In this document: positions 2,900 to 17,752 of the stretch, piece by piece | Position numbering within the stretch: position 1 is the first letter of the stretch | Layout of the letters: each line of letters opens with the position of its first letter | Source: Staphylothermus hellenicus DSM 12710 | GTDB lineage: Archaea > Thermoproteota > Thermoprotei_A > Sulfolobales > Desulfurococcaceae | Reading direction: 5' to 3' | Assembly (NCBI RefSeq): GCF_000092465.1 | Contig: NC_014205.1 | Coordinates: forward strand, 1,110,001-1,142,000 | DNA: 32,000 bases | The notes under the pieces: generated by a model | Database searches by the model: none | What the model was told of the DNA's origin: nothing | Seen by the model: only the letters and a program-made list of their open reading frames with translations | Program-made: the position numbers and the translations under genes

Positions 2900-3035
2900 T
2901 ATTTATGATTTATGTGGAATATAGGAAATATATCTGCAGTCCAAAACATTATGGAATAATATTGGAAAACAAGATAGGGGGTTCAACCTACGTTGGTTTT
3001 GATAGGCCTATATAGGTTTTCATTCCCTATATTGA

Positions 3036-3172
3036 TCCCCCTTGTCCCCGACCACGGGAGCCCGCATATGGTTTCTACAGACTCTCCTCATCGAGGACAA
3101 GGTTCATCCAAAAACTCATCCCCCTCCGCCACCCTCATCAAGGCCGATAACGTGGTCCAAGATACGCATTTA
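3036..3172. ncRNA. Unassigned GC-rich structured RNA island (strand uncertain; K-turn/C-box-like motifs read on the minus strand)
   Basis: About 56% GC by hand count over 3041-3160 against AT-rich flanks. Perfect 8-bp pairing 3040-3047/3095-3102 and perfect 7-bp pairing 3050-3056/3151-3157, interleaved. CTCATC occurs three times (3087, 3115, 3134). The only ORF here (2993..3310) is not protein-like. Confidence 0.5.
3084..3145 (-). ncRNA. C/D-box-like sRNA core inside the GC-rich island
   Basis: Minus strand reads CC-UUGAUGA-GGGUGGCGGAGG(12)-GGGA-UGAGUUUUU-UGGAUGA-ACCUUGUCCUCG(12)-AUGA-GG. Both spacers are exactly 12 nt and a CC/GG terminal pair is present, but both D-type boxes are degenerate (only the GA is kept). 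Confidence 0.35.
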
Positions 3173-3263
3173 CCCATGAAAAAATTAACAATTCCGACAG
3201 GCATAAATGGATGTAAAATCTTCATGAATATACTGAAAAATATAAATTGTAAACGTGGAGAAA

Positions 3264-16462: not shown

Positions 16463-16933
16463 ATGTCAAAACCCAGTACTGGTAGATCAAAAGAGCTCAA
16501 AATAATAACACGACATGTTATAACTATTAAAGATATAGAAAAAGATCATAGAAAAATCAAGCTGTTATATATAATTTCACAGCTTGGAAGTATTAGTGAA
16601 AAAGCACTACAATACTTATTATATTATATGAAGGAGAAAGGATATGATCTAGGCTATAATTATGTAATGCTTGGACAATTTCCATCAAGCAAGGAAATAC
16701 TCAATGACACGCTTGCATTAAGATATGTAGGATTATTAGAGACGAACCCAAGAAAGAAATTAGAAGCAACAAGCCTTGGAAAAGAATTCCTAGAAAAACA
16801 CAGCAGTATCATCAGTGACGAAGAAAAAGAAGAAATACGAAAACTAATCGAAGAACTAAGAGTAAAAATAGCACCAATAGATGCCGAAGTAGAAATGAGA
16901 ACAAGACCTAGGAGAAGAAGACGACTATTCTAA
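16463..16933 (+). CDS. Hypothetical protein, possible winged-helix/YwgA-like fold with an Arg-rich C-terminus
   Basis: GAGGTGAG SD upstream of the ATG. KIKLLYIISQLG...YVMLGQFPSSKEILNDTLALRYVGLLE resembles the KLxKLxY...GPYS.eL..dL..L...G pattern. C-terminal RPRRRRRLF. Confidence 0.5.
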   Translation: MSKPSTGRSKELKIITRHVITIKDIEKDHRKIKLLYIISQLGSISEKALQYLLYYMKEKGYDLGYNYVMLGQFPSSKEILNDTLALRYVGLLETNPRKKLEATSLGKEFLEKHSSIISDEEKEEIRKLIEELRVKIAPIDAEVEMRTRPRRRRRLF

Positions 16934-16981
16934 GATTTAAAAACCCTGTTATTTAAAAGATTTAAATGGGGGGCAGAAAAA

Positions 16982-16989
16982 TTTAAGTA
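16982..16989 (+). promoter_or_regulatory. Candidate TATA box (with purine-rich BRE-like GCAGAAAAA upstream) for the plus-strand GC-rich RNA
   Basis: TTTAAGTA preceded by AGAAAAA. The GC-rich island begins about 25-35 nt downstream. Confidence 0.4.
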
Positions 16990-17013
16990 TTTCAGATCAT
17001 ATCTTCTTGTATT

Positions 17014-17300
17014 GGTTTACGTCCCTAGGGGTTGATGGGAGCAATGCTCCAAGACCCCCAGGGCTGATCGTAGATGGGAGGCCCATGCCGTTGGCCTCGA
17101 CAGCCACCCATGACACCACAACCCTAAAAAGAGGATTGTGGGAGAGGTGGAAGTCCCTACCGTGGACACAAATAAACACAGAAATACACAGAATGACACG
17201 GTAGGGACAAACGGTCAGGGACCCGGGTAACAGGGCCGAGTGGCCCTTGGATGAGCCCGTGGACGAGTTGCACGGCCACAGTATCTTTACATATTCTTTA
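17014..17300 (+). ncRNA. Unassigned ~280-nt GC-rich highly structured RNA (strand tentatively plus)
   Basis: 150/260 = 58% GC over 17021-17280 by hand count. At least six helices: 17023-17063, 17074-17111, 17116-17141, 17153-17208, 17231-17249, 17257-17275. TATA upstream on plus, T-rich tract downstream (17284-17325). ORFs called here on both strands are not protein-like. Confidence 0.55.
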
Positions 17301-17350
17301 CAAGTTTTCTTCATGCCTATTTTGCTTAATTATAAATTATAACATGTTCT

Positions 17351-17752
17351 CTACATAGATGGGGTGATTTGGAACCGTCTTGTTTCTTTTTCTCGTTTAC
17401 CAATTGTTAATATAGGGTTTAATTTGCCTTCTTTTGCGAGTTTCTTTATGTATTCGTTAAATTTAGAAGTATGCTCTATATCTAGATCTAGTAATTGATA
17501 AAATATTGTTCTCAGCTTAGCCCAGAGATCTACTAGCATCTCTCTCGGCATATGACTTATAACCATGGGTTCTTTTAACCATTGATCAAAGGCTTCAATA
17601 GTTCTTAGCATATGTTGAAATGCTTGCCTCGATAACAATATAAGCTCTAAACGATCTAGTTTCTCATAGTTCTCTTCTGCCTTCATAAAGCTTTCCTTGA
17701 TCTCCTCTTGTCTTTTAACCCATGCTTCTAAGTTTGGAAAATATCCATCCAT
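17351..17752 (-). CDS. Conserved-looking hypothetical helical protein
   Basis: 133-aa all-helical ORF with no motif I can name. Confidence 0.5.
   Translation of the reverse strand: MDGYFPNLEAWVKRQEEIKESFMKAEENYEKLDRLELILLSRQAFQHMLRTIEAFDQWLKEPMVISHMPREMLVDLWAKLRTIFYQLLDLDIEHTSKFNEYIKKLAKEGKLNPILTIGKREKETRRFQITPSM

Follow-up and report, generated by a model that had tools for sequence, protein, structure and literature searches.

The question raised by this locus is what kind of RNA, if any, is specified by a GC-rich island in the chromosome of the hyperthermophilic archaeon Staphylothermus hellenicus DSM 12710. The DNA analyzed, referred to here as the window, is a stretch of 32,000 nucleotides (contig NC_014205.1, positions 1,110,001 to 1,142,000), and all coordinates are those of the window. 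A sequence-only reading had described positions 17014-17300 as one large structured RNA island, either a divergent RNase P or signal recognition particle (SRP) RNA or an RNA of an undescribed kind. We found that this 260-nt 'RNA' is two unrelated pieces put together by a transposon insertion. Positions 16974-17214 of the plus strand are very probably a 241-bp protein-less derivative of an IS607-family element, similar to miniature inverted-repeat transposable elements (MITEs) or palindrome-associated transposable elements (PATEs), which carries the omega RNA scaffold of the nuclease TnpB. This assignment is carried by the homology of the element's ends, a presence/absence polymorphism, GG at both junctions, a covarying structure and a sharp boundary at the right end. 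The island adds a new member to an already known type of mobile element; it is neither a novel RNA class nor a housekeeping RNA.

The island and its insertion site

A recount of the segment 17021-17280 gave the figure reported before, 150 G or C among 260 positions (57.7%), compared to a mean of 35.4% for the 32-kb window, and this segment is the GC maximum among the 260-nt stretches of the whole window. Its minimum free energy (MFE) lay below 200 dinucleotide shuffles on both strands (z of -4.4 for plus and -4.2 for minus). Every helix of the sequence-only reading was found where that reading had placed it: a stem at 17023-17032/17054-17063 that contains one A-C mismatch, GGAGC-AAU-GCUCC, GAGGCC/GGCCUC (17078-83/17093-98), CCACAA/UUGUGG (17116-21/17136-41), a perfect 12-bp helix (17153-64/17197-208) and two 3' hairpins. 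The TATA-like element that it had reported, TTTAAGTA, is present at 16982-89, and the T-rich tracts that it placed after 17284 are also found in the sequence.

The same locus of Staphylothermus marinus was used for comparison. The flanking genes are ordinary chromosomal genes (TIP49, Trm112 and phosphoglucomutase), the gene order is the same in both species, and the DUF2153 protein encoded at 17351-17752 (minus strand) matches S. hellenicus at 100% and S. marinus at 96% identity. The gap between the DUF2153 gene and the gene for a 156-aa protein, in contrast, measures 162 nt in S. marinus versus 417 nt in S. hellenicus. Alignment with the two S. marinus loci (L082 and L083) showed that the extra 241 bp of S. 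hellenicus are exactly 16974-17214, which S. marinus does not have; there, the AT-rich stretch corresponding to window positions 16934-16973 abuts the homologue of 17215-17283. Since S. marinus joins the two flanks without 16974-17214, the proposed RNA is composite, with inserted DNA as its larger portion. In L086, a more distant relative, the insert, the AT-rich stretch and the 17215-17283 piece are all absent. Among 80 DUF2153 loci of other species (GTDB species genomes), none carries the RNA beside the DUF2153 gene, and a single one of them, L040, has a diverged copy, at a distance of ~5 kb. The parts of the locus are as follows.

16934-16973, plus strand: pre-existing AT-rich stretch, common to S. 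marinus (alignment with L082/L083) and containing TTATTTAAAA.
16974-17022, plus strand: left end of the element, CAGAAAAATTTAAGTATTTCAGATCATATCTTCTTGTATTGG... (alignment with L130, L142, L135, L143, L125 and L183).
16979-16989, plus strand: TATA-like box AAATTTAAGTA, in what is the tnpA promoter region of full-length relatives.
17007-17204, plus strand: remnant of a tnpB reading frame, 65 codons, with its stop TAG at 17202-17204 (open reading frame list and translation).
17209-17214, plus strand: right-end terminus AAACGG, with the right GG core at 17213-14 (family alignments).
17215-17234, plus strand: predicted guide segment UCAGGGACCCGGGUAACAGG, the first ~20 nt of the flank, placed by analogy with the architecture of TnpB omega RNAs.
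17215-17283, plus strand: GC-rich (65%) element of ~70 nt that holds both 3' hairpins, is 92% identical to S. marinus and ends in ...GGCCACA.
17284-17325, plus strand: T-rich tracts that could plausibly serve as an archaeal terminator of a plus-strand transcript.

The empty site of S. marinus reads ...AAATAGGGGG|TCAGGG... (also written AAATAGGGGG|TCAGGGCCCCGGGTAACGGGG), and the occupied site of S. hellenicus reads ...AAATGGGGGG[CAGAAA...CAAACGG]TCAGGG..., with the insert in brackets. GG is present at both junctions without a target-site duplication, and the ends of the element, CAGAAAAAT... and ...GACAAACGG, are not inverted repeats. IS607 elements insert at (G)GG or TGGG, with a GG core and no target duplication (PMC6188088, PMC10690162). 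The junctions are therefore an IS607 signature, because they combine a GG core at both ends with the lack of both a duplication and inverted repeats. The AT-rich stretch ends in a G-run (16968-16973), whose last two positions, 16972-73, are the left GG core. This G-run is the insertion target and probably also the transposon-adjacent motif (TAM); GGG(G) was carried by 11/11 of the left-end junctions found.

The presence/absence polymorphism also bears on the proposal that a single cellular stable RNA of ~270 nt (a divergent RNase P RNA, SRP RNA or other housekeeping RNA) occupies 17014-17283. The high GC content inside the AT-rich genome of a hyperthermophile, the strong folding, the lack of a match to a known family and a string, GGAAGUCC, that is similar to conserved region I (CR-I) of RNase P RNA are what such an RNA would lead one to expect. 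Against this, two thirds of it are missing from the same locus of the sister species, it is absent beside DUF2153 in the 80 related genomes, its family occurs at unrelated loci with two copies on several contigs, it overlaps the tnpB coding sequence, and conservation ends at 17214, mid-way through the proposed RNA. No match to RNase P or SRP RNA was seen even at E<=10, and the CR-I near-match is explained by coding, since GGUGGAAGUCC encodes RWKS and GGAAGUCC is made up of the codons of a conserved ...RWKS... peptide. The polymorphism refutes the housekeeping reading, which we regard as extremely improbable.

Relatives of the element and the IS607 family

A motif derived from the copies of the window and of L040, whose helices differ in sequence and have the same pairings, was scanned against metagenomes and retrieved at least 120 stretches. 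True relatives make up at least ~115 of them and come from hot-spring and vent samples; six others, in high-GC contigs, match by chance. The order of parts is the same in all relatives: hairpin 1/2, a linker, GAUGGGAG, hairpin 3, CUCGAC..CACCCAUGA, hairpin 5 enclosed by helix 4, GAGGUGGAAG, the long stem 6 with its variable loop, and ACAAACGG, after which the sequences of the relatives are unrelated. In the family alignments, A209, A210, A211 and C212 of the right-end terminus are invariant and G213 is nearly so, with no conservation afterwards, and this boundary is the end of the S. hellenicus-specific insert. A hidden Markov model (HMM) of 56 relatives, from which the window sequence had been left out, matched only 17023-17214 (+) of the window, over the full length of the model (E 7e-43), and the same model gave no match on the S. 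marinus loci.

In 34 copies among the matches listed, the motif lies at the end of, and on the same strand as, a reading frame of mostly ~430 aa. This open reading frame (ORF) matches Pfam Cas12f1-like_TNB and the NCBIfam model TIGR01766 'TnpB-related' (65.7 bits, cutoff 32), scores 79.6 bits with guided_TnpB, which is under that model's cutoff of 100, and has relatives named 'RNA-guided endonuclease InsQ/TnpB' in their sources. An overlapping ORF of ~215 aa upstream of tnpB matches Resolvase and HTH_17/MerR, and the NCBIfam equivalog 'IS607 family transposase' (transpos_IS607) at 231 bits (cutoff 110). By these domain matches, the full-length relatives are IS607-family elements that encode a serine-recombinase TnpA and the RNA-guided nuclease TnpB. 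They measure ~2.0 kb, and ~1851-1863 nt separate their left end from the motif, which lies downstream. In these 34 relatives, tnpB and the scaffold share the final ~60 codons of the gene, and 10 nt remain between the stop and the right end. No PDB sequence was matched by the TnpB of the family at E<=0.001. Outside the metagenomes, the Pyrococcus abyssi plasmid pGE2 carries a gene annotated as TnpB-related (57% identity), whose 3' sequence is the same and ends in ...GGTAGGGAGAAACGG; since it has the same scaffold and right end, the family is also present on a euryarchaeal plasmid. On that plasmid (L207, NZ_MN477947), the scaffold and right end (2568-2761) come after the gene, and an unannotated, apparently 5'-truncated frame for an IS607-type serine recombinase was noted upstream of it at ~900-1465.

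The window element shares both ends with these full-length copies. The left ends of L135, L143, L125 and L183 align with window positions 16970-17015 (GGGGCAGAAAAATTTAAGTATTTCAGATCATATCTTCTTGTATTGG); that of L135 reads GGGGCAGAAACTCTTAAATATTTCAAATTATATCTTTCTATATCGGAG followed by the tnpA ATG, and in the full-length copies this ATG lies ~55 nt past the aligned left end. In the window, 17016-17180 (frame +3) encodes the C-terminal 56 residues of TnpB (tblastn, 57% identity, E 2e-12 to the TnpB of L093), and the remnant frame is still open to the usual UAG stop of the family. On the grounds of the left-end alignment, the HMM match and the tnpB remnant, 16974-17214 is made up of a left end of ~49 bp and 192 bp of scaffold and right end; these last 192 bp (17023-17214) are the tnpB 3' end with its omega RNA, also called right-end RNA (reRNA), scaffold, terminating in ...GGGACAAACGG. 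The option of an undescribed RNA in the sequence-only reading is thus replaced by homology to the 3' ends of TnpA- and TnpB-encoding IS607-family elements.

Relatives were classed as full tnpB copies when at least 250 in-frame codons lay upstream and as 'solo' copies when fewer than 150 codons preceded an in-frame stop. Among the matches listed, 119 copies comprised 34 with full tnpB, 74 solo and 11 ambiguous ones. The left end also aligns with the solo copies L130 and L142, and the distance from left end to motif in four solo copies is 91-102 nt (window 102, L130 101, L142 102). This common spacing bears on the possibility that the window copy arose by deletion, in situ, of a once full-length insertion sequence (IS), as a one-off product of decay that was never mobile as a miniature. 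Its left and right ends are exactly those of the full-length IS, its tnpB frame is still open, and internal deletions of IS copies are common, all as expected of such an event. Nevertheless, a left end of this type also lies 101-102 nt from the scaffold in L130 and L142, in other genomic contexts, a spacing that independent deletions would rarely give, and many solo copies occur in other subfamilies too. We consider an origin by in situ deletion very unlikely. The junction distance common to the window, L130 and L142 suggests a lineage that may have transposed after the deletion had occurred.

Several variants were observed within the family. Two copies are present on each of the contigs L156, L174 and L189, and L162 and L164 lie on one contig. 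The L189 copies (45+ and 5347-) are inverted; the two agree fully over the motif and the 12 nt that precede it and diverge downstream, which suggests recombination or modular exchange between elements. A distinct scaffold subfamily comprises L040 (9630-9850, minus strand), L092, L095, L096, L107, L124, L141, L147, L165, L174 and L185. Its signature is UCA-GAUGGGAG..GUGGCGUU..GGGCACCC with the end GGGGAAACGC. Upstream, some members bear a GTTTAAATAC box of their own together with a GGAUGAUCCGC...GCGGUGAC hairpin; the L096 scaffold closes a 341-aa stop-to-stop frame with TnpB-like motifs and no Pfam match. In L089, L103, L156(-), L163, L186, L188 and L189(-), helix 5 is swapped for a longer hairpin with GGGAUGAGCC...GUGAGCCC, which looks like a kink-turn (K-turn)-type motif and is not found in the main type. 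Finally, a contig from a public short-read assembly of the organism itself (L001, Logan SRR3925462) ends at ~17186, in the loop of helix 6; this break inside the element is a weak hint that the scaffold could be repeated elsewhere in the genome.

Covariation, strand and known RNA families

Covariation was evaluated with an RNAalifold consensus on 57 sequences, which contains the following helices.

17024-33/17053-62, plus strand: scaffold helix 1, extendable by 17023/17063; 10/10 pairs compensatory in the 57 sequences.
17038-42/17046-50, plus strand: apical helix 2, GGAGC/GCUCC; 100% paired and almost invariant.
17078-17098, plus strand: helix 3, GAGGCC/GGCCUC with a 9-nt loop; 3/6 pairs covary (CG, GC, UA, AU), 98% paired.
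17104-08/17146-50, plus strand: helix 4, CC.CC/GG.GG; without changes in the main type, whereas the L040 subtype has GCACC/GGUGC.
17116-22/17135-41, plus strand: helix 5, CCACAAC, inside helix 4; 5/7 pairs compensatory.
17153-64/17197-208, plus strand: helix 6, 12 bp, closing a 32-nt loop that is A/C-rich and variable in sequence; 9/10 consensus pairs covary, 96% paired.

The consensus contains 42 pairs, and 27 of them show changes on both sides, so the helices up to 17208 that had been proposed for the island are supported by compensatory changes in relatives. Paired cells amounted to 95.7%, compared to 82.9% in column shuffles (0/500 shuffles reached the observed value), and fell to 34-47% when the partners were slid by 1-3 columns; the covariation score was 0.365 vs 0.139. 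The window copy keeps 40/42 pairs. Solo copies keep 94% of the pairs, though premature stops are present in 11/31. Since the helices to 17208 covary in ~57 relatives and the 3' hairpins (17215-17283) lie outside the family, the island is composite: the earlier description holds for a structured element and fails for a single RNA.

The sequence-only reading had found conflicting indications of the strand. Positions paired on the plus strand comprise 132 G-U vs 66 A-C combinations, and this excess of G-U, together with the orientation of tnpB and the TATA box of the left end, settles the conflict in favor of the plus strand. A minus-strand reading was accordingly rejected, with G-U on the plus strand twice as frequent as A-C and with both tnpB and the promoter oriented as plus. 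A 105-aa ORF on the minus strand (16997-17314) has no Pfam match and was not called as a gene in the collection. Two structural candidates were also rejected. A K-turn (L7Ae site) in helix 1 would have to be formed by the internal loop GAUG/AA, in which position 2b is G and not A, which rules out a canonical K-turn, and the long-range MFE pairing 17063-70/17211-18 (CUGAUCGU/ACGGUCAG) has a 3' strand that is half right end and half copy-variable guide, so that the family does not share it.

The scaffold was also compared with known RNA families. A cmscan search of the whole window against Rfam 15, the check that the sequence-only reading had proposed, gave no match at the gathering score, and the element matches no known family. 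At E<=10, two weak unrelated matches were obtained in 16900-17400 and none to RNase P or SRP RNA. Archaeal RNase P RNA was rejected with no match to the RNaseP_arch or type-T models, and archaeal SRP RNA with no match to Archaea_SRP, in each case neither at the gathering score nor at E<=10. The identification as RNase P or SRP RNA is thus abandoned, given the lack of a model match, the absence from the S. marinus locus and the overlap with tnpB. Rfam searches of a full-length relative and of L040 returned nothing relevant. A tRNA or split tRNA was ruled out by ARAGORN, which found no tRNA in the window, and searches of viral contigs and a phage collection gave no match to the element.

The remaining piece, 17215-17283, was found nowhere else among the loci except in S. 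marinus (L082, 6459-6522, minus strand). Both 3' hairpins of the sequence-only reading are present in it, and they are shared with S. marinus only, not with the family of the island. The S. marinus copy reached 18.1 bits (E 0.086) with Rfam PyrR205, a Pyrobaculum H/ACA-like small RNA (sRNA), which is below the gathering threshold of 35.6, and the S. hellenicus copy had no Rfam match at E<=10. The latter carries two non-compensated substitutions in the 7-bp GGCCCCG/CGGGGCC hairpin, and its fold is no better than that of shuffles (z -0.25), compared to -1.87 in S. marinus. In S. marinus, the equivalent of 16934-16973, which is promoter-like, directly precedes the homologue of this piece. As a lead, 17215-17283 could hold a gene for an H/ACA-like sRNA that the insertion has separated from its promoter.

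A second GC-rich island was observed elsewhere in the window, at ~3030-3165 on the minus strand (intergenic region 2900-3254, ~48% GC per 200 nt). It contains a long near-perfect hairpin and several GAUGA-type boxes, has an MFE z of -3.3 vs -0.45 on the plus strand, and matched nothing in Rfam at an E-value below 0.5. This island is a candidate for an unannotated sRNA.

Possible activity of the miniature element and comparison with known systems

In archaea, the omega RNA used by TnpB comes from the right end of its element. From such established features of TnpB and IS607, we infer that the window element is transcribed, that its RNA is bound by TnpB and used with a guide, and that the proteins are supplied in trans. 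The promoter in the left end would start transcription at ~17012-17017, a few nucleotides before helix 1, so that the scaffold would be transcribed. Transcription would then cross the right end, the next ~16-20 nt (17215-17234, UCAGGGACCCGGGUAACAGG) would become the guide, and the transcript would end in the T-tracts after 17284. TnpB from a full-length copy elsewhere could bind this RNA and cut the empty allele at a G-rich TAM next to a target that matches the guide, and the resulting break would lead to recombinational re-copying of the element. TnpA, also acting in trans, could excise or move the 241-bp unit.

Several observations weigh against the reading of the window element as a guide-RNA-bearing IS607 derivative. 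Neither tnpA nor any further part of tnpB was found within the 32-kb window, and a search with the remnant peptide gave one weak match and no close full-length protein. In the TnpB search, no match named Staphylothermus was present among the best 120 of 950. The nearest relatives of the window copy are no more than 73-81% identical to it, which implies an old insertion, and this copy may be inert. Conservation of primary sequence in the full-length copies is largely confounded by coding constraint: GAUGGGAGC...CACCCAUGAC encodes DGSPVPLGSTATHDP, for which GAUGGGAGCCCCGUGCCGUUGGGCUCGACAGCCACCCAUGAC codes, and GAUGGGAGC in the helix 1 region is also fixed by the codons for DGS. In addition, the TAM is deduced solely from the G-runs at left-end junctions.

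The lack of transposon genes in the window, the outcome of the remnant-peptide search, the 73-81% identity and the 2 of 42 pairs that are broken are what would be expected of an inert relic, that is, a dead IS607/tnpB-derived fragment from which no guide RNA is transcribed, in a genome that has no TnpB or TnpA to match it. Structure and open frame would then persist because there was too little time for decay. Yet all other consensus pairs are kept despite a divergence of ~20-27% from every relative found, and the pairs are likewise retained in solo copies, a third of which have lost the reading frame. Because pairs are kept despite divergence and lost frames, we argue for selection on the RNA. 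The same distance from left end to scaffold in three unrelated contigs (window, L130 and L142) and the excess of solo over full copies among the matches listed (74 to 34) also speak against a relic, which we hold to be possible, if somewhat unlikely. A protein-less IS607-family derivative with its omega RNA scaffold is the reading that we retain.

A more far-reaching scenario combines these observations. A mini element that carries a promoter and encodes a guide RNA only (left-end TATA box plus scaffold) would be the dominant form in this hyperthermophile IS607/TnpB lineage, parasitising the TnpA and TnpB of rarer autonomous copies. The S. hellenicus copy would be active and, having inserted exactly where the promoter of an H/ACA-like sRNA meets the sRNA itself, would give rise to a chimeric omega-RNA/sRNA transcript in which the 5' end of the sRNA is the guide. 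Taken as a whole, we regard this scenario as unlikely.

The assignment removes a false lead, since a GC-rich 'orphan RNA' that resembles a missing housekeeping RNA is transposon-derived. It also reveals an uncurated RNA family, with at least ~115 copies of an archaeal TnpB scaffold, strong covariation and no Rfam model; because Rfam has no model, genome annotation leaves such islands unexplained. The empty site of S. marinus and the occupied site of S. hellenicus are a natural before/after pair for an IS607-type mini element. Protein-less omega RNA elements that bear a promoter outnumber their autonomous parents ~2:1 among the matches listed, an excess that bears on the maintenance in trans of RNA-guided transposons, and thermostable TnpB/omega RNA pairs can be drawn from the family.

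Compared with known systems, the island resembles archaeal RNase P and SRP RNAs in its size, its high GC content and its fold of several helices within the AT-rich genome of a thermophile; in contrast to them, it is multi-copy, transposon-linked and not kept in the sister species. The scaffold family is like the omega RNAs or reRNAs of TnpB in the IS200/IS605 and IS607 families (ISDra2, SisTnpB1 of Sulfolobus islandicus and the IStron of Clostridium botulinum), which are likewise located at the 3' end of tnpB, overlap the ORF, reach the right end and have a structured scaffold ahead of a variable flanking stretch that acts as guide. The family also shares with IS607 elements a serine recombinase as partner transposase, a GG core and the lack of a target duplication. 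It differs from known TnpB omega RNAs in a sequence and fold that are not represented in Rfam 15 and in its hyperthermophilic archaeal hosts (Desulfurococcales-type metagenome-assembled genomes and the Pyrococcus abyssi plasmid), and the window copy differs further in being without tnpA and in having no more than 65 codons of tnpB left. The reRNAs derived from RAGATH-18 belong to bacterial IS607 TnpBs (PMC11061315) and are similar in being a guide-RNA scaffold tied to an IS607-family TnpB. No match to RAGATH-18 was obtained by cmscan against Rfam 15, at E<=10 for the window and E<=5 for a full-length relative, with the presence of this model in the Rfam copy not confirmed; based on the lack of a match, the RNA family described here is a different one. 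PATE-like minimal IS605 elements encode omega RNAs that are used by TnpB in trans (Meers et al. 2023, PMC10055086). Like these PATE/MITE-like IS605 elements, the window element is protein-less and keeps both ends and the omega RNA, with TnpA and TnpB presumed to act in trans. Unlike them, it is derived from IS607, with a serine recombinase, a double-stranded DNA circle and a GG core rather than a Y1 transposase with hairpin ends, it is archaeal, and its retained left end supplies a TATA box from which the omega RNA would be transcribed.

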